64,000 nt of DNA from an uncultured Anaerolineales bacterium (GTDB lineage Bacteria > Chloroflexota > Anaerolineae > UBA1429), in contig CAYOUT010000006.1 in NCBI GenBank assembly GCA_964407215.1, positions 87,437 to 151,436 of the forward strand, in the 5' to 3' direction. The notes under the pieces were generated by a model. The model did not search any database. It had not been told where the DNA came from and saw nothing but the letters and a program-made list of their open reading frames with translations. The first letter of the stretch is position 1. Each line of letters begins with the position of its first letter. Shown here piece by piece: positions 15,674 to 40,057 of this stretch. Both the position numbers and the translations under genes were made by a program.

Positions 15674-16906
15674 ATGCTGTGTTCGATTGATAATGGTGAC
15701 GTTGTTGTGCGATTGTTGGTGTTGGCCGGCTCGGAAGAGGATGCTGAGCCGTTGTTGAAGGAGATAGAGCGCGCGGGGCTGGAGCTCGCCAGTTGCCGCG
15801 TAGAGACGATAGAGACCCTGCCGGCCGCGCTACAGCAGGGGACGTGGCACCTCGCGCTGCTGGACGAGGGCGCGCCCGGCGGCGTGGACGACGCCCTGCG
15901 CCTGTTGCGGGCGGGCGCCCCCGCACTGCCCGCTGTGGTGGTGGGCGCCAAGCCCAGCGAGGAGGCGGCCGTCCGCGCTCTGCGGGCGGGCGCGCAAGAC
16001 TATGTGAGCCGGCAGCACTTGGAGCGCCTGGGCTCTGTTGTGAGATGCGCCCTGTGCACGGACGAGACAGGGCCGGATGGGGCGCCCTGTGCTGGGCGCG
16101 CGAGATGCGAGCCCAACACGCACAAGATGGAGGCGCTGGCACGTTTGGCGCACGGTGTGGCCCATGATCTGAATAACCTGCTGACCATCATCAAGGGCTA
16201 CTCGGCTATGGCACACGACGCGCTGCCAGAGTATCACCATGCGCGCCGCGATATGGCCGAGGTGATGATGGCGGCGGATCGCGCCACCGCCCTGAGTCGG
16301 CAACTCACGCTGTTGGCATCGCGGCAGCCCCTCGCCCGGCGCGTGTGGGATCTCAACGAGCTGGTGTTGGGCGCACACAAGATGCTCTGCGAGCTAGTGG
16401 GAGGGGGCGAGGATGGGGCCGGCGACGAGCGCGCCATCCACCTGGAGCTCGATCTCTCGCCCGACACACTGCCGGTGGCCGTGGATGCCGCGCAGCTGCG
16501 CCGGGTGTTGGCCTCGCTCGCCCGCAACGCCCGCGACGCCATGCCCGACGGCGGCCAATTGGCCATTCGCACGCGCCGGAGGCGGCCGGACGACAGGCTC
16601 GGTTGTGGGGGCTCCGGTGTGATCCCGGGCGAGCGCGCCCAGTTGGTGGTGCGGGATACGGGCGCCGGCATGAGCGCCGATGTGCTGGAGCACCTGTTCG
16701 AGCCGTACTATACCACCAAGCGGGGCCACGGCTTGGGGCTGGGCCTGGCCGTCGTCTATGGTATTGTGAGGCGGCACGACGGTTGCATCGCGGTGCAGAG
16801 CCTGCCGGGGCTCGGCACCACCATCAGCATCTGCCTGCCACGGGCGCAAGAGGGGGGGCAGGCTCCGCCGCCCGGCTCGCTCCGTACAGAGGGAGGAAGA
16901 TCATGA
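15674..16906 (+). CDS. sensor histidine kinase with N-terminal receiver-like (possibly degenerate REC) domain
   Basis: AAGAGG SD and ATG at 15674. HisKA H-box ([16 protein letters not shown]) and HATPase_c (…[24 protein letters not shown]…[11 protein letters not shown]…). The first ~120 aa resemble a CheY-like fold but the conserved acidic pocket and Lys are not obvious. The stop overlaps the next gene (ATGA). Confidence 0.8.
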
Positions 16907-17817
16907 AGATCGGGTTCGTCAGCGCCATCCTGCCGGATCTCTCGTTGGAACAGGTGTTGGCCTTTGCGGGCCAACAGGGTTTTGCCACAGTGGAGCTGAT
17001 GTGCTGGCCGGTGGGCCGCGCCGAGCGCCGCTACGCCGGCGTGACGCATCTGGATGTGACAGAGGTCGACGAGGCCGGCGCGCGCTATGTGCAGGAGCAG
17101 CTCGTGCAGAGCCGCGTGAGCATCTCGGGCTTGGGCTACTATCCCAACCCGCTCACGCCGGTTCTCGCCGACCGCCAGCGCTTCACCGACCATCTGCGCC
17201 GCGTGATGGACGCCGCCGCTACGCTGGGCGTGGAGGTGGTCAACACGTTTGTGGGGCGCGACCCCGCTCGGCCGGTGGAGGCCCAGTGGGACGATTTTAT
17301 GGAGGTGTGGCCGCCCCTCATCGAGTTCGCCGAGCAGCGCGGCCTAAAGGTGGGGATCGAGAACTGCCCCATGCTGTTTTCGTTGGACGAGTGGCCCGGC
17401 GGGACCAACATGGCCTCCTCGCCGGCCATCTGGCGGCGGATGTTCGAGCTGATCCCCAGCCCCGCTTTTGGCCTCAACTACGACCCGTCGCACATGATCA
17501 TCCAGCACATGGACGAGGTGCGGCCCATTCGCGAGTTCGCCTCGCGCATCGTCCACGTGCACGCCAAAGACCAGCGCATAGACTATGCCCTGCGCGACGA
17601 GGTGGGCGTGTGGGGCCTGGGGTGGTATATCCCCAAGCTGCCCGGCCTGGGCGAGGTGCGTTGGGGCGACTTTTTTGCCGCCCTCACCGACGTGCGCTAC
17701 GAGGGGGCCGTCTGTATCGAGGTGGAGGACCGCGCCTACGAAGACTCGCTCAGCGCCCGCCAGCGCGCGCTGATCCAATCCAAACGGTATCTGGATCAGT
17801 TCCAGGCCTGGGGGTAG
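16903..17817 (+). CDS. sugar phosphate isomerase/epimerase (xylose isomerase-like TIM barrel)
   Basis: Start [10 protein letters not shown] with a GGGAGGAAG SD. The ATG overlaps the TGA of the upstream kinase (ATGA). Motifs …VGIENCPM…, …[11 protein letters not shown]…, …VHVHAKD…. Confidence 0.85.
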
Positions 17818-17847
17818 GGGCGGGGGGGCGCGACGCGATGGTTATGT

Positions 17848-18150
17848 GTAGGGACGCAGGGCCGCGCGTGGCGGTGTGTGTAGGGGCGCAGGGCCGCGCG
17901 TGGCGGTGTGTGTAGGGGCGCACAGCTGTGCGCCCCTACATTCCCACATCGTATCCCCACATCGTGCGCTCCTACATTCCCACATCGTATCCCCACATCG
18001 TGCGCCCCTACATTCCCGCATCGTATCCCCGCATCGCATGCGCCTTGTACATTGCAGCGCAGAGACGCGCCGCCGGGGTTGTGTGCGCGGGGCGCAGGGC
18101 CGCGTGTGGCGGTGTGTGTAGGGGCGCACAGCTGTGCGCCCCTACACGGG
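17848..18150. repeat. REP/BIME-like palindrome array, 5' of the RAYT
   Basis: Two ~32-nt direct repeats (GTAGGG[AG]CGCAGGGCCGCGCGTGGCGGTGTGT), then the full palindrome, then three 36-nt tandem units (TTCCCACATCGTATCCCCACATCGTGCGC[TC]CCTACA), then a second palindrome copy. Confidence 0.7.
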
Positions 18151-18204
18151 TGGATTTACATGGTGCGCTCTTACATGGTGGCTACGCAAAGGCGATATCA
18201 GGCA

Positions 18205-18738
18205 ATGCCCTACGATCCGGACCGGCACCACAGACGCACGTTGCGCCTACAACAGCTCTATAGCCAAACGAACACTTTTTTTGTCACCCTGACGACACAT
18301 GAACGCGTTTGTCTTTTCGGCGAGGTGGTCGGCGGGGCGATAGTGCTGTCGGCGTTCGGAAAGATCGTCGAAGAGGAGTGGCTGAAAACGCCCGAGATCC
18401 GCCCCCAGGCCGTTCTCGACGCGTATGTCATCATGCCGAACCATGCGCACCTCCTCGTGAGACTTTCGGTTCACGCGGATGCGACAGGCGCCGTAGCGGT
18501 CGTCGGCCGCGATGACAGGCCCCTGGTGCGCCCAGCGAGATCGCTGGGCTCTCTCATCGCAGGGTTCAAGGCGGCTTGTACCACGCGCATTAACACGATG
18601 CGCGATACAGCCGGAGCGCGGGTGTGGCAGAGGAACTACTATGAGCGTATCGTACGCAACGAGAGAGAGTTGAACGCTCTCCGATGCTATATCCGGGAGA
18701 ACCCATCCAACTGGGCGGCGGATCCTGACAACGTATGA
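18205..18738 (+). CDS. REP-associated tyrosine transposase (RAYT; IS200-like Y1 HUH transposase)
   Basis: MPYDPDRHHRRTLRL…FFVTLTT…IMPNHAHLLV (HuH motif)…WQRNYYERIV (catalytic Tyr region). In-frame alternative ATGs lie at 18160 and 18175. GC content is visibly lower than the neighbouring genes. Confidence 0.8.
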   Translation: MPYDPDRHHRRTLRLQQLYSQTNTFFVTLTTHERVCLFGEVVGGAIVLSAFGKIVEEEWLKTPEIRPQAVLDAYVIMPNHAHLLVRLSVHADATGAVAVVGRDDRPLVRPARSLGSLIAGFKAACTTRINTMRDTAGARVWQRNYYERIVRNERELNALRCYIRENPSNWAADPDNV

Positions 18739-18788
18739 CGGCACGGCGCCGCCGGGGTTGCGCGCGGGGATGCGACGTGATGATATAT

Positions 18789-19130
18789 GTAGGCATATGT
18801 AGGGGCGCGGAGACGCGGCGTGATGGTGTGTGGTGATATGTGTAGGGGCATATGTAGGGGCGCACAGCTGTGCGCCCCTACATTCCCGCATCACGTGCGC
18901 CCACATCACGCGCTCCCATCGCGTGCGCCTTGTATATTGCAGTGTATCAAAGCGCAGGGGCACACCGTGATGGTGCCGGGACATGTGCAGGGGCGCGGAG
19001 ATGCGACGTGATGGTGTGTGGTGATATGTGTGAGCGCACAGCTGTGCGCCCCTACACCCGCATCGCTACATTCCCGCCCCTACATTTTCGTATCGTGCGC
19101 TCCTACACCGCGTGCATTTATATGGCACCC
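18789..19130. repeat. REP/BIME-like palindrome array, 3' of the RAYT
   Basis: GTAGG half-sites, the full palindrome at ~18854-18881, a module (TGCGCCTTGTATATTGCAG…) similar to one in the 5' array, and a degenerate palindrome at ~19034-19055. Confidence 0.65.
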
Positions 19131-19152
19131 CACCCCGCCACACCTTGCGAGA

Positions 19153-20229
19153 TCAGCACACGCGCGCGATCTGTTGGACGGCGCGCTCGGCCTCGGCGGG
19201 GCCGGCGAAGCGCGGCAGAGAGAGCATCAACCCGTCGGGGCCCAGGGCGCGCGTGAGGGCGACGGCCTCTTCCACCGAGGAGCAGCCCACCAGCAGGCAA
19301 AAGCCCATCTCGCGAATGCGACGGAAGGCGTCGATCCAACGCACCGGTGAGCCCGCGCCGGGCTCGGGGTTCCACTGGATGCCGTGCAGCCCCCGCACCG
19401 TGCGCAACAGGTCGAGAAAGCGCAGCTGCGACGTGCCATCGAGGTGGTACAGTGCGTAATCCATCGCGTCGCACGTGCGCTGCAGGTCGGGCAGCACCAG
19501 CCACTGGTACATGGGCGGCGAGAGCATCACGCTGAAATCGCACTGCACGGCCTCAAAGCGCCCCTCGGCCATGGGCTGCAGCCAGGTGGACGTGTCGCCG
19601 TAACCCAGCCCCCGCAACATGCTGTAGAAATGCTCGTAGGCGGCGGTATAGATGTCGGTCAGCGCGGCGCTCCAGCGCAGCACATCGTCGGGGCGCTTCA
19701 CCACGTCGTAGCAGAGCTGCTCGGGCGTGCGAAAGCTCGATAGCGTGGTGAGACCGTCCAGCATGGACGGTGGATTGACATAACCTCTATCTCCCACCAC
19801 CGCGGCGCAGGCGCGCAGGCACGCCTCCACTTTGCCCACGAGGGGCGAGTGCGGATCGAACCGGGGGATGGGGCGCTCCCACAGGCGGGGGATGGGCTTG
19901 ATCCACGTCGAGTCGCTGTGGTAGCCGTACTCGCCGCCGGCAAAGGCGGCCACGGTCACGAGCAGTGTGCCCCAACGGAACCCCACACCGGGCATCGCCT
20001 CGGCCAGGTAGAGGTTGCAGCGCAGCGCTTCGTCGTGGTACCAGGCGTGCCAGGCGGGGTCGAGGTCGGTCTCCAACGAGGGCGCCGGCGCCCCGCGCCA
20101 GGGGATCGGCTCGGCGTCGCGGTTGGCAGCCACTATGTAGAGGGCCGGGCGCCCCAGGCTGGCACCGGCCCAGAAGGCGCGCAACCGCTCGCGCGCGTCG
20201 GCCTCGTTGGGTTTGCAGGTGAAGGGCAT
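19153..20229 (-). CDS. hypothetical protein, distant uroporphyrinogen-decarboxylase (URO-D/MtaA)-like fold
   Basis: Start MPFTCKPNEADARERLRAFWAG with GGAG upstream. The N-terminus (…ERL.A…DR.P.) and C-terminus (…HLDGTSQLRFLDLLRTVRGLHGIQWNPEP…) resemble the URO-D-like gene at 44915. The ORF track frame extends upstream without a start signal. Confidence 0.5.
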   Translation of the reverse strand: MPFTCKPNEADARERLRAFWAGASLGRPALYIVAANRDAEPIPWRGAPAPSLETDLDPAWHAWYHDEALRCNLYLAEAMPGVGFRWGTLLVTVAAFAGGEYGYHSDSTWIKPIPRLWERPIPRFDPHSPLVGKVEACLRACAAVVGDRGYVNPPSMLDGLTTLSSFRTPEQLCYDVVKRPDDVLRWSAALTDIYTAAYEHFYSMLRGLGYGDTSTWLQPMAEGRFEAVQCDFSVMLSPPMYQWLVLPDLQRTCDAMDYALYHLDGTSQLRFLDLLRTVRGLHGIQWNPEPGAGSPVRWIDAFRRIREMGFCLLVGCSSVEEAVALTRALGPDGLMLSLPRFAGPAEAERAVQQIARVC

Positions 20230-20270
20230 AGCGGGCTCCGCCTCTCGGTGTGGGGTGATGTGTGGCGCGG

Positions 20271-21410
20271 CTACGGCCGAAAGGTCTCTACCACGCCAGC
20301 GTAGTGCCCCAGCTTGTCGGGGTCGAGCGCCAGGCCCAGGCCCGGCGTGCGCGGAATCTCCAGGTAGCCCTCGGCGTCCAGCTCGGGGGGATCCACCGAT
20401 AGGTCGTCCATATACGCGGAGGGAGTGAGGTACTCCACATACCGGGCATCGGGCATGGCGGCCGTCAGGTGGAGGTCGGCGTGGAGGCCCACCACGGTGT
20501 TCCAGCCGTGGGGCACCATCTCCACGTGGTGATCGTAGGCCATCCAGGCGATGCGGCGCGCCTCCGACAGGCCGCCCACCTTGGTGACGTCGGGCTGGAT
20601 GATATCCACCGCGTGCTGTTCGATCCAGGGGATGAACGACTGGCGCCGCGTCAGCACCTCGCCGCCGGAGATGGGCACCGGCGAGTTGGTGCGCAGTGCG
20701 GCATAGCCGTCGATATCGTCCGGGCGCAGCGGCTCCTCGAACCAGGTGATGTCGTAATCGTGCAGCATGTAGGCGGTATCCAGCGCCCATTTGAACTCGT
20801 GAGGCCAGAACTCGCCGCTGCCGCCGGCGTCCACCATCAACGCCACGTCCTCGCCCACGGCCAGGCGGGCGGTGCTCACCAGCGCCTCATCGCGGGTGCG
20901 GGTGCTGAGGCCAAAGTTTCCCCAGCCCAGCTTGATGGCGCGGTAGCCCGTGCTCACCAGCTCCTGCAGCGTATCGCGCAGGGCCTCCAGTGGCCACTCG
21001 AACAGGATCGACGCGTACGGCCGCACGCGCGTGCGGTAATAGCCGCCCAACAGGCGCGCCACCGGCTGCCCGCTGGCCTGCCCCAGCAAGTCCCAGAAGG
21101 CCATATCCAGCCCTGAGATAGTGTGCGTCACCGCGCCGCCGCGCCCCTGCCAGAAGGTGGCCTGGTGCAGCTTCTCCGAGACGCGCTCCGGCTCGATGGC
21201 CGACTCGCCCTCCAGGTGCGGCATCAACAGATGCAGCGAGGCGTTCACCAGCGCGGAGCTGGTGTAGCAGCTCCCCAAGCCCACTTGGCCGTCGTCGGCC
21301 ACCACTTGAATCAACGTGTGCAGGTTGTCCTCGGGCTGGGTCTCGCGCTCCCAGCCGTTCACCGGCGTCGAGCCCACTAGGGGGATGGTGCGTATCTCCT
21401 GGATTCTCAT
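20271..21410 (-). CDS. enolase-superfamily (mandelate racemase/muconate lactonizing enzyme family) sugar-acid dehydratase
   Basis: Start MRIQEIRTIPLVG with a GGAGGAA SD. MR/MLE pattern (…AIKLGWGNFG…, …MVDAGGS…, …WFEEPL…, …ISGGE…). Likely an L-rhamnonate, L-fuconate or galactonate dehydratase type. Confidence 0.85.
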   Translation of the reverse strand: MRIQEIRTIPLVGSTPVNGWERETQPEDNLHTLIQVVADDGQVGLGSCYTSSALVNASLHLLMPHLEGESAIEPERVSEKLHQATFWQGRGGAVTHTISGLDMAFWDLLGQASGQPVARLLGGYYRTRVRPYASILFEWPLEALRDTLQELVSTGYRAIKLGWGNFGLSTRTRDEALVSTARLAVGEDVALMVDAGGSGEFWPHEFKWALDTAYMLHDYDITWFEEPLRPDDIDGYAALRTNSPVPISGGEVLTRRQSFIPWIEQHAVDIIQPDVTKVGGLSEARRIAWMAYDHHVEMVPHGWNTVVGLHADLHLTAAMPDARYVEYLTPSAYMDDLSVDPPELDAEGYLEIPRTPGLGLALDPDKLGHYAGVVETFRP

Positions 21411-37204: not shown

Positions 37205-37390
37205 AGCACCTCCTCGGTGAGCGCGGATCGTGGGCCACATGATGGCGCGGGGCGTGTGCGGTGTCAAGGCGCGCGGGGGGGCGTCGCTTGTGCCCGGCGC
37301 CCCACGTGTGCCATAATCCGCGTGCCAGAGCATCGCGGCCACATCCCAGCCGGGTAGGTCTGTGTAGTGTGAGCATTCAGGAGGTGTGTG

Positions 37391-38242
37391 ATGGAGAAGC
37401 GCGTGTTGGGCAGGACGGGCGCCGAGTTGTCGGTGGTGGGGTTCGGCGGCATCATCGTGATGGACGTCGAGCCCGAGGAGGCCGCTCGCAACGTGAGCGA
37501 GGCCATCGAGCGCGGTGTGAACTATTTCGATGTGGCGCCCTCTTACGGCAACGCGGAGGAGCGGCTGGGCCCCGCGCTGGAGCCCTATCGGCAGGGGGTG
37601 TTCCTGGCCTGCAAGACGGGCGAGCGCACCAAGGGCGCGGCCAGGGCCGAACTGGAGGGCTCGCTCCAGCGGCTGCGCACCGATTACTTTGATCTGTACC
37701 AGCTTCACGCGGTGACCACCGCGGAGGACGTGGAGACGATCTTTGGGCCCGGCGGCGCGATGGAGGCCCTCCTCGAGGCGAAACGAGAGGGCAAGGTGCG
37801 CTTTCTGGGGTTCTCGGCCCACTCGGAGGAGGCGGCCATCGCGTGCATGAACCGCTACCCGTTCGACAGCATCTTGTTCCCCTTTAACTGGGTGACGTGG
37901 CACGAGGGCGGGTTTGGGCCGCGCGTGCTGGATGCGGCGCAGGCCAAGGGGGCGGGGCGGTTGGCGCTGAAGGCTCTAGCCAAGCGCAAGTGGCGCGAGG
38001 GCGAGGCGCGCCAGTGGAGCAAGACCTGGTATCGCCCGGCTGAGAGCTTTGAGGACGCCGACCTGGGGTTGCGGTTCACCCTGTCGCTGCCGGTGACCGC
38101 GGCGGTGACGCCCGGGCACATCGAGCTGTTCCGTTGGGCGTGCGACAGCGCCGACCGCTACACGCCCCTCACCCCCGAGGAGGTGCAGCGGCTGGCCGAG
38201 TTGTCTCGCGGGCTCGAGCCGATCTTTGAGCACGCCTCGTAG
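37391..38242 (+). CDS. aldo/keto reductase
   Basis: AGGAGGTG SD and ATG (MEKRVLGRTGAELSVVGFG…). AKR motifs (…NYFDVAPSYGNAEERLG…, …GFSAHS…). Confidence 0.85.
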   Translation: MEKRVLGRTGAELSVVGFGGIIVMDVEPEEAARNVSEAIERGVNYFDVAPSYGNAEERLGPALEPYRQGVFLACKTGERTKGAARAELEGSLQRLRTDYFDLYQLHAVTTAEDVETIFGPGGAMEALLEAKREGKVRFLGFSAHSEEAAIACMNRYPFDSILFPFNWVTWHEGGFGPRVLDAAQAKGAGRLALKALAKRKWREGEARQWSKTWYRPAESFEDADLGLRFTLSLPVTAAVTPGHIELFRWACDSADRYTPLTPEEVQRLAELSRGLEPIFEHAS

Positions 38243-38342
38243 GGGCGGGGTCGCTCGGCCTTGCGCCGAGCGAAAGAATGCCGGGGCGGCCTCACAGCGT
38301 GGGGGGTCGCCCCGGTGCTCTCGGCAGCAAAACACACAGCCC

Positions 38343-38370
38343 GTAGAGACGGGGCACACCCCGTCTCTAC
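38343..38370 (-). terminator. stem-loop (12-bp perfect stem GTAGAGACGGGG/CCCCGTCTCTAC), candidate terminator for the SBP gene
   Basis: On the minus strand the hairpin is followed by a moderately U-rich tract (…GGGCUGUGUGUUUUG). Confidence 0.3.
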
Positions 38371-38386
38371 CTTGCACAAATCCAGC

Positions 38387-40057
38387 CTAGACTTCGGGCT
38401 GGCAATCCCACTGGGTGAGGTCCCAGTTGCCGTCCTCACTGTACTGGATGGCGTCCTCGCGTATGTCCTCGGGCGCCGCGTCGTGGGTGACGGCGGTCAT
38501 GTTGGCCATGGTCTGTTCCAGCGTCTGCTCGCCTATGAAGTACAGGTCGTTCTCGCGGTAGAGGAAGTCGCGGTACTTGCCCCCCATGCCGAACAGCCAG
38601 GTGATAGGGGGTATCGGCAGGCCGCCGCCGGGCAGGCGCGACTCGCCCACGAACAGATTGGCGATCTCGGGCAGGGCGCGCGCCTTCTTGACGGACGGGA
38701 TGAACGAAGGCACCTCGTTGACGACGAGCTCGTCGTGTTCGGGCGTGGTGAGGAACATGAGCCAGTCCACGCACTCGTCCACGTTGCCGCGCTGGAGGCA
38801 CATGCGGTTCAGGCCGAAAGCGATGGAGCCGTAGCCGCCGACGCCGACGGGCAGCAGCGGGGGATCCTTGGCGAACTCGGAGGTCTCTTGGGTGACGGGA
38901 GGCAGCCAGAACGACGAGAACTCAAAGTCGCGCCGGTCGTCGTCGCGCAGCGGGCCGTACTGCCAGGTGCCCTCCCACAGCATGGCCACTTGACCGGTGG
39001 CGAACGCCTGGTAGGCGGCGGCGCCGTCTCTCAGCGTCCAGTCCGTCGGGAAGTACTGCGCCCACTCCTTCTGGATGCGGTACATATCCTGGACCTCGGG
39101 CTGCTCGAACAGGAACCAGTCGTAGCACCAATACTGGTGGGCCGTCTCCTCCAGGCTGACATAGCCCTCCTGCTTCCACAGGGGCACCGTCTCGTGGTAG
39201 TTGAGCGTGTCCATAAAGTCGAGCCAGTTCCAGCAGAGCTCGTTCCCCAGGACGCGCCAGATCCAGTCGTGGCCCGTGCTGCTGGGGCTAAAGGGCACGA
39301 CGCCCGCGTCCTGCAGCATCTGGTGCCACTCCATGAAGGTGACCCAATCGGGGGGTGAACCCAGCTCGGGGTCGATGCCCGCCTCCAGGTCGATGCCCGC
39401 TTTCTCAAAGAGGTCTACGTTGACATAGACGCCGGTAGAAACCAGGTCCATCGGCACGCCGCCATAGTTCCCCTTGGAGCTAAAGCTCTCGATGAAGGGA
39501 TCGAGAAAGTGCTCCTTCCAAGGGGCGGGATCGTCCGGGATGTACTTGTTGGGCATCTCCAGGTAGTCGTTGAGGGGTACGCACTTGCCCTCATCGACGA
39601 AATCGTGCAGGCTGCTCAGCCACAGCCAGAAGACGTCCGGCCCCGTGCCGCCGATGAGCTGCGTCTGCAGCCAATCCACATAGTCGCCGGTGGGGGCGCC
39701 GATGAACTTCATGGTGACGCCGGGGTGGAGATCGTTCCACTCCTCCGCCAGGTCGTCCAGCGCGCGGCGCTTGGGGGCGTTGGGGTCGGGGTTGGTGTCG
39801 GCGGAGAGGGGCGTGTAAACCTGAGCATAGTGCTCGATGACGCCCTGGAAGCCCACGGGCTTGGCCTCCTCGGTCGGCTCCTCGACGGGCTCTGTCGGTT
39901 CGGCCTCTGCCTCGGGCGGCGCCTCACCCTCGGTCTCTGTCGGGGCCGTTGGGGCGGGGGGCTGGGCCGGTTGGCAGGCCGCTGCGATAGTGGCTAACGC
40001 TGCAACGCCGGAGAAACGCAAAAAGTCACGTCGCTTGAGTCGCAAGTCGTCTCGCAT
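38387..40057 (-). CDS. extracellular solute-binding protein (family 1, sugar ABC transporter) with Tat/lipoprotein signal
   Basis: MRDDLRLKRRDFLRFSGVAALATIAAAC (twin-arginine motif plus lipobox), Glu/Pro-rich linker, then an SBP family 1 fold. AAGGAG SD. No adjacent permease genes (orphan SBP). Confidence 0.85.
   Translation of the reverse strand: MRDDLRLKRRDFLRFSGVAALATIAAACQPAQPPAPTAPTETEGEAPPEAEAEPTEPVEEPTEEAKPVGFQGVIEHYAQVYTPLSADTNPDPNAPKRRALDDLAEEWNDLHPGVTMKFIGAPTGDYVDWLQTQLIGGTGPDVFWLWLSSLHDFVDEGKCVPLNDYLEMPNKYIPDDPAPWKEHFLDPFIESFSSKGNYGGVPMDLVSTGVYVNVDLFEKAGIDLEAGIDPELGSPPDWVTFMEWHQMLQDAGVVPFSPSSTGHDWIWRVLGNELCWNWLDFMDTLNYHETVPLWKQEGYVSLEETAHQYWCYDWFLFEQPEVQDMYRIQKEWAQYFPTDWTLRDGAAAYQAFATGQVAMLWEGTWQYGPLRDDDRRDFEFSSFWLPPVTQETSEFAKDPPLLPVGVGGYGSIAFGLNRMCLQRGNVDECVDWLMFLTTPEHDELVVNEVPSFIPSVKKARALPEIANLFVGESRLPGGGLPIPPITWLFGMGGKYRDFLYRENDLYFIGEQTLEQTMANMTAVTHDAAPEDIREDAIQYSEDGNWDLTQWDCQPEV

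Follow-up and report, generated by a model that had tools for sequence, protein, structure and literature searches.

We studied a locus in a 64,000-nt stretch of DNA (hereafter, the window) from an uncultured Anaerolineales bacterium in the phylum Chloroflexota, where a single gene for a REP-associated tyrosine transposase (RAYT, or TnpA_REP; REP, repetitive extragenic palindrome) lies among dense palindromic repeats. The locus is probably a REPtron, that is, one chromosomal TnpA_REP/RAYT gene of subclass 2.4 (Group 4) bracketed by clusters of its cognate REPs, which carry a conserved tetranucleotide "foot" at both ends (double-foot REPs). A REPtron had already been proposed in a sequence-only reading of the same DNA. 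We found that the best profile and fold match of the protein is the Escherichia coli TnpA_REP (PDB entry 4ER8), that its key residues are conserved, and that REPs are present on both sides of the gene.

Gene setting and repeat structure

The repeats and one short open reading frame (ORF) fill a 1.3-kb stretch that separates two convergent genes. The element extends from 17814 to about 19106 and contains four repeat clusters, A to D. In the sequence-only reading the element was placed at 17848-19130; the locus was correct, but the start is at 17814 and the end is at about 19106. The transposase gene lies between two REP-bearing flanks (17814-18147 and 18746-19106), as had been stated, and the REPs occur within ±400 nt of it. 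The features are as follows (positions in the window; strand in parentheses where assigned).

16903-17817 (+), upstream gene for a xylose-isomerase-like TIM-barrel protein (PF01261)
17814-18058, cluster A
17814-17847 (+), outermost (+) half-site unit, beginning GTAGGGGCGGGG, whose TAG is the stop codon of gene 16903-17817
17845-17922 (+), left arm of cluster A, tandem array of 2.4 copies of a 32-nt unit (97% matches)
17912-17939, REP copy 1, exact 28-mer, centre of cluster A
17928-18036 (+), right arm of cluster A, tandem array of 3.0 copies of a 36-nt unit (94% matches)
18039-18057 (+), module TGCGCCTTGTACATTGCAG, copy 1
18059-18147, cluster B
18067-18090 (+), 24-nt direct repeat GCGCCGCCGGGGTTGTGTGCGCGG, copy 1, start of cluster B, 88% identical to 18746-18769
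18118-18145, REP copy 2, exact 28-mer, a 32-nt perfect palindrome when its flanks are included, 59 nt upstream of the RAYT ATG
18205-18738 (+), RAYT/TnpA_REP gene, 177 aa
18493-18524 (+), candidate remnant of a decayed in-frame REP, GTAGCGGTCGTCGGCCGCGATGACAGGCCCCT, encoding VAVVGRDDRPL, at the position of the in-frame REP of homologues
18746-18944, cluster C
18746-18769 (+), 24-nt direct repeat, copy 2, start of cluster C, directly after the RAYT stop codon
18794-18850 (+), 57-nt left-arm unit of cluster C with (+) half-sites, repeated at 18982-19038 (88%)
18854-18881, REP copy 3, exact 28-mer, 115 nt downstream of the RAYT stop codon
18885-18942 (+), right arm of cluster C, degenerate repeats of ~15 nt (18885-18929) and then module TGCGCCTTGTATATTGCAG, copy 2 (18924-18942)
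18945-19106, cluster D
18982-19106 (+), repeats of cluster D: left-arm unit, REP copy 4 and terminal (-) half-sites at 19075-19083 and 19096-19106
19028-19055, REP copy 4, degenerate, with three mismatches, all in the left half
19153-20229 (-), downstream convergent gene for a 358-aa protein with no Pfam match

The core repeat is a 28-nt perfect palindrome, GTAGGGGCGCACAGCTGTGCGCCCCTAC (hereafter, the 28-mer), which is present in three exact copies and one degenerate copy; in shuffled sequence, 0 matches to it are expected. Its half-sites, GTAGGGGCGCA (+) and TGCGCCCCTAC (-), cluster at 17848-18145 and 18799-19106, with the GTAGGGGCGCA units to the left of the palindromes and the TGCGCCCCTAC units to the right. 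All clusters are built in the same manner, from G/T-rich left-arm units, the core palindrome, and C/A-rich right-arm units. In cluster A, the 32-nt unit consists of the (+) half-site and a G/T-rich spacer, and the 36-nt unit consists of the (-) half-site and a C/A-rich spacer. Palindromes and half-sites had been described for both flanks of the gene, which we confirmed; the 36-nt repeats had been assigned to each cluster, but they occur only on the left side. The module shared by both sides was also found: TGCGCCTTGTAYATTGCAG closes clusters A and C (18039-18057 and 18924-18942), with 0 occurrences expected by chance. Judging from its sequence, the first copy may be a degenerate terminal unit of the right arm of cluster A. 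The 24-nt direct repeat opens clusters B and C and thus brackets the RAYT gene. Cluster D terminates 47 nt short of the stop codon of the downstream gene.

As single-stranded DNA, the 28-mer is predicted to form a hairpin of -16.8 kcal/mol (z = -5.9). REP copy 1 is ringed by paired outer half-sites at 17880 and 17965, which gives a nested hairpin, and the nested fold of cluster A has a predicted energy of -34.7 kcal/mol (z = -6.0). We do not consider the 32-nt and 36-nt arrays to be CRISPR-like, as each comprises only two to three units, these units are REP half-sites, and cas genes are absent.

Two copies of the 12-mer GTAGGGGCGGGG are present in the window, at 17814-17825 and 38239-38250, and in both copies its TAG is the stop codon of a plus-strand gene (16903-17817 and 37388-38242, respectively). 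This half-site-like sequence over stop codons may be due to chance or to old REP insertions at gene ends.

The window contains one RAYT copy and no TnpB gene, second RAYT copy, or asymmetric insertion sequence (IS) ends; the absence of TnpB and of IS200-type ends at the locus had been noted before. Scans of the window for Rfam families and tRNA genes were empty. The genes near RAYT encode the TIM-barrel isomerase, the protein without a Pfam match, and an enolase-family protein. The best named matches of the isomerase are from Anaerolineae and Chloroflexi (64-77% identity), which makes a Chloroflexota host probable from this neighbouring gene as well.

The transposase protein

The ORF encodes 177 aa; in the database copy, the start is placed at the ATG at 18160, 45 nt upstream, which gives 192 aa. 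The sequence-only reading described a Y1 HUH transposase of ~178 aa with the motifs IMPNHAHLLV and YDPDRHHRR, and both motifs are indeed in the ORF (the latter as MPYDPDRHHRR). A search with Pfam Y1_Tnp (PF01797), which had been suggested as a check, gave a match marginally above the gathering cutoff (24.4 bits versus 23). A single-sequence phmmer search against PDB gave no transposase match. In the case of a profile built from 29 homologues, the best PDB match was E. coli TnpA_REP 4ER8 (E = 7.5e-6), and the alignment spans the HUH motif and WQ...E.IRN...YI..NP. The AlphaFold model of the protein has a predicted local distance difference test (pLDDT) score of 85.8. In a Foldseek search with this model, 4ER8 was again the top match (template modelling score, TM, 0.57/0.60), followed by the TnpA proteins of ISDra2 and IS608; the top 30 PDB matches were all TnpA_REP or IS200/IS605 proteins. 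The modelled structure thus points to a TnpA-type alpha/beta fold. The corresponding residues are as follows.

HUH motif: H80 and H82 (PNHAH); in 4ER8, the HUH motif (EHMH)
GTAG contacts: W141, Q142, E147, R148 and R151; in 4ER8, W94, Q95, E100, H101 and R104
Catalytic Tyr: Y162 in CYIRENP; in 4ER8, Y115
Essential Asn: N166; in 4ER8, N119

H80, H82, W141, Q142, R151, Y162, and N166 are invariant in 44 homologues; E147 and R148 are not. These residues agree with the hallmarks of Y1 HUH transposases, namely a metal-binding HUH motif on a beta strand and one catalytic Tyr on a C-terminal helix. The segment NYYERIV had been taken for the catalytic tyrosine region, but it is Y162 in CYIRENP that aligns with Y115 of 4ER8. 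The stretch VWQRNYYERIVR is the GTAG-contact segment (W94/Q95/E100/H101/R104 of E. coli TnpA_REP). The linker between the HUH and Tyr motifs (residues ~88-112) is predicted to be disordered.

The RAYT ORF is AT-richer than its surroundings, in agreement with the earlier description. Its GC content is 0.597, within the lowest 0.8% of 534-nt windows, and its GC content at third codon positions (GC3) is 0.713, compared with 0.82-0.905 in four neighbouring genes.

Probable assignment to subclass 2.4 and Group 4

The protein search returned 5160 homologues, many of which are named 'REP element-mobilizing transposase RayT' and many of which come from Chloroflexota; the named sources also include Armatimonadota and other groups. 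TnpA_REP subclass 2.4 (Quentin et al. 2018, BMC Genomics 19:475, PMC6006769) corresponds to RAYT Group 4 (Bertels et al. 2017, GBE 9:2110). Subclass 2.4 is characterized by the motifs NH[IFV]H, WQ, and YIxNNP, an HUH-Tyr linker that varies, and a REP stem with a base of three G-C pairs; double-foot REPs (5' GT[AG]G and 3' C[TC]AC) and in-frame REPs inside the gene are unique to this subclass (Quentin et al. 2018, PMC6006769).

The window protein shares the WQ motif and the variable linker with subclass 2.4, and at E147 it keeps the Glu equivalent to E100, where subclasses 2.5 and 2.7 have Asp. The general patterns NHxH and YI..NP and the length (~180-195 aa in the subclass) are also alike. The REP has the stem and feet of subclass 2.4 (GTAG-GGG...CCC-CTAC): a GTAG foot followed by three G-C pairs (GTAGGGG...), in a double-foot GTAG...CTAC palindrome. 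The GTAGGGG-headed sequence GTAGGGGCG, the head of the REP, has 68 occurrences among the subclass 2.4 REPs in Table S1 of Quentin et al. A REPtron comprises at least two REP hairpins with a 5' GT[AG]G foot within ~1 kb of the gene, and here four clusters are present. The chromosomal location of the gene and the host range, which includes Cyanobacteria and Caldilineae/Chloroflexi, are further points of likeness. The flanks of the window copy, with their mirror-image tandem arrays of half-sites, are unusually elaborate for this subclass.

Group 4 is rare in Proteobacteria and common in Cyanobacteria, Chlorobia, and Caldilineae (Bertels et al. 2017). The sequence-only reading considered the locus noteworthy because RAYTs are reported mainly in Proteobacteria; as Group 4 is already known from Chloroflexota, a RAYT in an Anaerolineae host is not remarkable. 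The copy statistics of Group 4 are housekeeping-like, and the flanking 16-mers have only about 14 occurrences per replicon (Bertels et al. 2017).

The locus resembles other known systems in part. The E. coli REPtron (4ER8; Group 2 / subclass 2.2) gave the best profile and fold match, shares the HUH, Tyr, Asn, and GTAG-contact residues, and is likewise flanked by its own REPs. However, the REPs of E. coli form bulged hairpins, have one GTAG foot only, on the 5' side, and are arranged in bacterial interspersed mosaic elements (BIMEs), whereas the REP in the window is perfectly palindromic and strand-symmetric and has a foot at each end; structure-based identity to E. coli TnpA_REP is only about 18%, and the score of the protein falls below the NCBIfam equivalog cutoff. 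With the Pseudomonas REPIN-RAYT system (Group 3; Bertels & Rainey 2011; REPIN, REP doublet forming a hairpin), the locus shares a single RAYT gene flanked by its own repeat and a homogeneous repeat population with a master sequence and maintained palindromy. REPINs consist of two inverted REPs and a spacer and number hundreds per genome, whereas the half-sites here abut without a spacer and the reported abundance of Group 4 repeats is about one order of magnitude lower. The GTAG REP families of Di Nocera et al. (2013, BMC Genomics 14:522) are GTAG-tagged palindromes outside Proteobacteria, including the cyanobacterial GTAG-12/15/16 and GTAG-23 of Thermomicrobium roseum; like the REPs here, they frequently occur as dimers and are frequently embedded in longer palindromes. 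The main text of that study does not mention the exact 28-mer, and its 100% sharing across phyla is not reported there.

Strain comparison and synteny

Two short metagenome contigs (L117 and L118) represent a strain that is 98.6% identical to the window over the flanking genes, and this strain has RAYT at the same locus. We compared 17790-18300 of the window with L117:3220-3755 and L118:2766-3442. In the upstream arrays, the window exceeds the strain by one 32-nt and one 36-nt unit, and the strain carries an 87-nt block with two more half-site units. As the arrays differ by whole units between near-identical flanks, they turn over much faster than the surrounding genes; the RAYT gene is inherited in place while the arrays vary.

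In an Anaerolineae metagenome-assembled genome (MAG; L139/L140) whose isomerase is 77% identical, the isomerase gene is followed by genes for a DegT-type aminotransferase and an MR_MLE enolase, and there is no RAYT. In the window (16903-21407), the REPtron and the gene for the 358-aa protein (19153-20229, minus strand) take the place of this aminotransferase; thus, the REPtron lies at a synteny break. A metagenome scan with a 31-nt extended palindrome gave 10 stretches, none of which was a new locus from the organism of the window.

The 28-mer in other genomes

The exact 28-mer was found in at least 30 genomes from about 6 phyla, with a genomic GC content of 0.36-0.71 and unrelated flanks (loci L001-L116). 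For a given 28-mer, about 2e-5 occurrences are expected in the searched genome collection. The groups are Cyanobacteria (including Sericytochromatia), Chloroflexota, Gemmatimonadota, Binatia, a Meiothermus MAG, and a gammaproteobacterial MAG. The 28-mer is clearly a dispersed family in other genomes: it is present in at least 28 separate 8-kb stretches of Nostoc calcicola FACHB-3891, at least 22 stretches of Nostoc sp. CreGUA01, at least 10 of Chroococcidiopsis FACHB-1243, and at least 6 stretches distributed along a complete 3.9-Mb chromosome of a Dehalococcoidia member. Of 97 copies in the low-GC cyanobacteria, 90 are outside long open frames. In Nostoc, the 28-mer is often mid-way in longer repeats that resemble miniature inverted-repeat transposable elements (MITEs). 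At L116 (Binatia) and L059 (a Gemmatimonadales MAG), it lies within open frames of 1111 and 663 codons, respectively; these are possible in-frame REP insertions in unrelated genes, and long frames are common by chance at such GC content.

Palindromy ends exactly at 28 nt in 111 of the 126 copies in other genomes, and no target-site duplication or flank consensus was visible around these copies. All fetched loci together gave 150 exact 28-mers and 24 variants. The variants include 11 symmetric compensated doubles (for example, GTAGGGGCGTACAGCTGTACGCCCCTAC), 6 singles, and 2 asymmetric doubles; variant sites include L124:5329-5356, L074:4020-4047, L105:5778, and L111:1974. As the changes are mostly compensated double changes, palindromy appears to be actively maintained and the two arms kept identical. 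The 28-mer was absent from the IMG/VR viral contigs scanned. The RAYT family itself was found in 3 of 72,556 plasmid records, all non-mobilizable, and in 1 phage record.

Double-foot REPs and REPs inside the ORF are already known, and the identity of the 28-mer to the base in different phyla appears not to have been noted before: the 28-mer string is absent from the REP table of Quentin et al., and the 12-mer GTAGGGGCGCAC was not found in the literature searched.

A second double-foot GTAG palindrome of another type, GTAGAGACGGGGCACACCCCGTCTCTAC, is present in the window at 38343-38370 (13-bp stem, one mismatch). The ORFs on its two sides, 37388-38242 (+) and 38387-40057 (-, solute-binding protein), are convergent, and no RAYT lies close to it. 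This palindrome suggests that other parts of the genome carry a second REP family and perhaps also another RAYT. Palindromes of the GTAGAGACG...CGTCTCTAC types are present in Nostoc loci as well.

REPs inside the genes of homologues

Homologues with 40-51% identity (from two Nostoc genomes, an Anaerolineaceae MAG, and several metagenome contigs) have the same 28-mer at positions of about -20 to -97 and +25 to +40 relative to the gene. It is also found inside the genes, in frame, between the HUH and Tyr motifs, where it encodes VGAHSCAPL. The copies inside ORFs are as follows.

L042:7232-7259
L074:3595-3622
L027:3964-3991
L122:3280-3307
L124:3286-3313
L128:980-1007

Most close homologues of the window RAYT have an in-ORF REP. 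L120 and L122 have the in-ORF copy only, without flanking REPs, and their genes abut the neighbouring genes. At the P0036 locus, three independent contigs (L124-L126) carry a RAYT that has REPs at -20 and +30 and also within the ORF; this RAYT sits between the genes for the R and S subunits of a type I restriction-modification system. Among the 120 best homologues, the linkers contain REP-coded peptides, such as VGAYCNTPL, VGATGRSPL, and VGAHGRAPL (the last corresponding to GTAGGGGCGCACGGCCGTGCGCCCCTAC), and in-frame tandem half-site repeats. In the window RAYT, the DNA encoding VAVVGRDDRPL weakly resembles a REP of another, GGCC type, a resemblance that is non-significant by alignment; its nearest relatives (62% identity) carry the GGCC type.

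With the linker masked, the RAYT cores are 58.4% identical within the 28-mer type and 55.7% identical between REP types, and REP type thus seems barely to track the tree of the protein core. As the cores are barely more alike within a REP type, recent transfer of the gene together with its REP does not explain the identity of the 28-mer. The DNA sequence of the 28-mer itself appears to be constrained or continually reseeded. We tentatively consider that the 28-mer might be one sequence-invariant REP 'species' common to Cyanobacteria, Chloroflexota, Gemmatimonadota, Binatia, Deinococcota, and a gammaproteobacterial MAG, in hosts of 40% to 71% GC, with a heritable master copy in frame inside the RAYT gene; at present, this is a possibility that we regard as more doubtful than not.

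Points against the assignment and alternative explanations

Several observations weigh against the reading of the locus as a subclass 2.4 REPtron. The sole NCBIfam match, REP_Tyr_transpos (NF047646), has a score of 61.5 bits, below the curated equivalog cutoff of 80; we take this model to be centred on proteobacterial groups, so that the low score weighs little against membership in the wider RAYT family. The motifs NHAH and YIRENP are close to, but not literal matches of, the 2.4 consensus NH[IFV]H and YIxNNP. Unlike most of its relatives, the window RAYT has no intact REP inside the ORF, and only a possible, non-significant trace is present; an in-frame REP between the HUH and Tyr motifs is described as 'predominant', not universal, in subclass 2.4. 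The sequence-only reading took the palindrome to imply a genome-wide REP family, which for this genome is only a possibility; the 28-mer and its variants have 0 copies in the other ~62.7 kb of the window, but with ~14 copies per replicon in Group 4, zero is the expected number in 62.7 kb and is uninformative. A promoter and terminator scan of the locus was empty, with no promoter-like site. RAYT biochemistry exists for Groups 2 and 3 only and for no Group 4 enzyme (Corneloup 2021). Finally, the first 77 codons of RAYT differ from those of the close strain by 3 nonsynonymous changes and 1 synonymous change, compared with 1 nonsynonymous and 13 synonymous changes in 716 codons of neighbouring genes (Fisher p about 0.02, on very small counts), which hints that RAYT is under relaxed constraint.

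The main alternative is that the locus is a fossil REPtron, a decaying relic in which RAYT is inactive in this lineage and the arrays change only by slippage and repeat recombination. The nonsynonymous excess (3:1 versus 1:13 in the neighbours), the apparent decay of the in-ORF REP, the degenerate REP copy 4, the lack of dispersed 28-mers in 62.7 kb, the lack of a promoter-like site, and the whole-unit insertions and deletions between strains, such as slippage would give, are all in line with this explanation. However, the ORF is intact and has kept all of its catalytic and GTAG-contact residues, and the three flanking REPs are perfect, whereas unselected 28-nt palindromes would soon lose their perfection. 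The substitution counts are tiny, and the three amino-acid changes are conservative and at non-conserved positions. We consider a relic unlikely.

We consider it quite improbable that the locus is an autonomous IS200/IS605-like element, in which the gene and palindromic ends move together, acquired by recent horizontal transfer. Such an origin would be compatible with the lower GC and GC3 of RAYT relative to its neighbours, the identical palindromes on both sides of the gene, and the synteny break relative to the Anaerolineae relative without RAYT. The Y1 HUH fold is common to the TnpA proteins of IS608 and ISDra2, which also act on single-stranded DNA hairpins with a guide tetranucleotide 5' of the hairpin. 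However, no TnpB or second copy was found in the window, and the gene is bordered by symmetric clusters of multiple REP copies instead of separate left-end and right-end hairpins. With its Asn, the Tyr motif YI..NP (YIRENP) is like that of TnpA_REP and unlike Y[IV]ENQ. The diverged strain has the gene at the same locus, the family is almost absent from plasmids and phages, the 28-mer is absent from the IMG/VR contigs scanned, and the Group 4 copy statistics are housekeeping-like, not IS-like.

It is very improbable that the palindrome clusters are structural or regulatory DNA of the host, such as transcript-end hairpins or protein-binding sites, with the transposase as a bystander: the clusters do lie between two convergent genes, the hairpins are strong, and a different double-foot palindrome lies between another convergent pair (38343), but no T-tracts or terminator-like sites were found at the locus, no other convergent pair in the window carries the 28-mer, and in unrelated genomes the same 28-mer accompanies RAYT genes, even inside their ORFs.

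Proposed mechanism

For the REPtron, we propose a mechanism by homology with the studied enzymes of Groups 2 and 3 (Messing 2012, 4ER8; Corneloup 2021); the cleavage chemistry and cleavage sites, current activity, and the origin of the arrays are all inferred. In transient single-stranded DNA, the 28-mer would form a hairpin whose stem comprises 12-13 bp and whose loop is AGCT. A monomeric enzyme would bind the hairpin and read the GTAG foot through W141/Q142/E147/R148/R151. The metal held by the HUH motif (H80/H82) and Y162 would then cut beside the hairpin at a CT/CA dinucleotide, forming a 5'-phosphotyrosine link, and the CTAC foot may supply the CT dinucleotide for cleavage. As the 3' CTAC pairs with GTAG and contains CT, each strand would hold a hairpin, a guide, and a candidate cut site within 28 nt. 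The 3'-OH of another single strand could resolve the link, by which REPs would be copied or moved.

Replication slippage, together with recurrent local events at or within hairpins already present, might generate the nested mirror-image arrays of half-sites. This proposal for array growth agrees with the reported placement of GTAG REPs within longer palindromes (Di Nocera 2013) and with the half-site repeats that occur in frame in the homologues.

Implications

The locus is an ordinary example of an already described type of element, with a single-strand DNA transposase gene of the domesticated type, and its only unusual point is that the 28-mer is unchanged in very distant bacteria. It can be annotated as a Group 4 / subclass 2.4 RAYT REPtron, which matters little for the window itself; the hypervariable arrays could serve as a strain marker.

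For subclass 2.4, the 28-mer provides a minimal strand-symmetric substrate of 28 nt that combines a hairpin, the GTAG guide, and a candidate cut dinucleotide (the CT of CTAC). As its bases are conserved across phyla, this substrate is an attractive model for the recognition, copying, and homogeneity of REPs, and it also allows us to ask whether a REP embedded in a transposase gene has a function. The lead across phyla concerns the RAYT family and not the window copy, whose internal REP is lost. If the 28-mer is indeed an invariant REP 'species' with its master copy inside the gene, the in-ORF REP would act in cis as a functional part of the system, for instance as a source copy that is protected or as a site of autoregulation, and the window copy, which lost its internal REP and kept elaborate flanking arrays, would represent a derived state.

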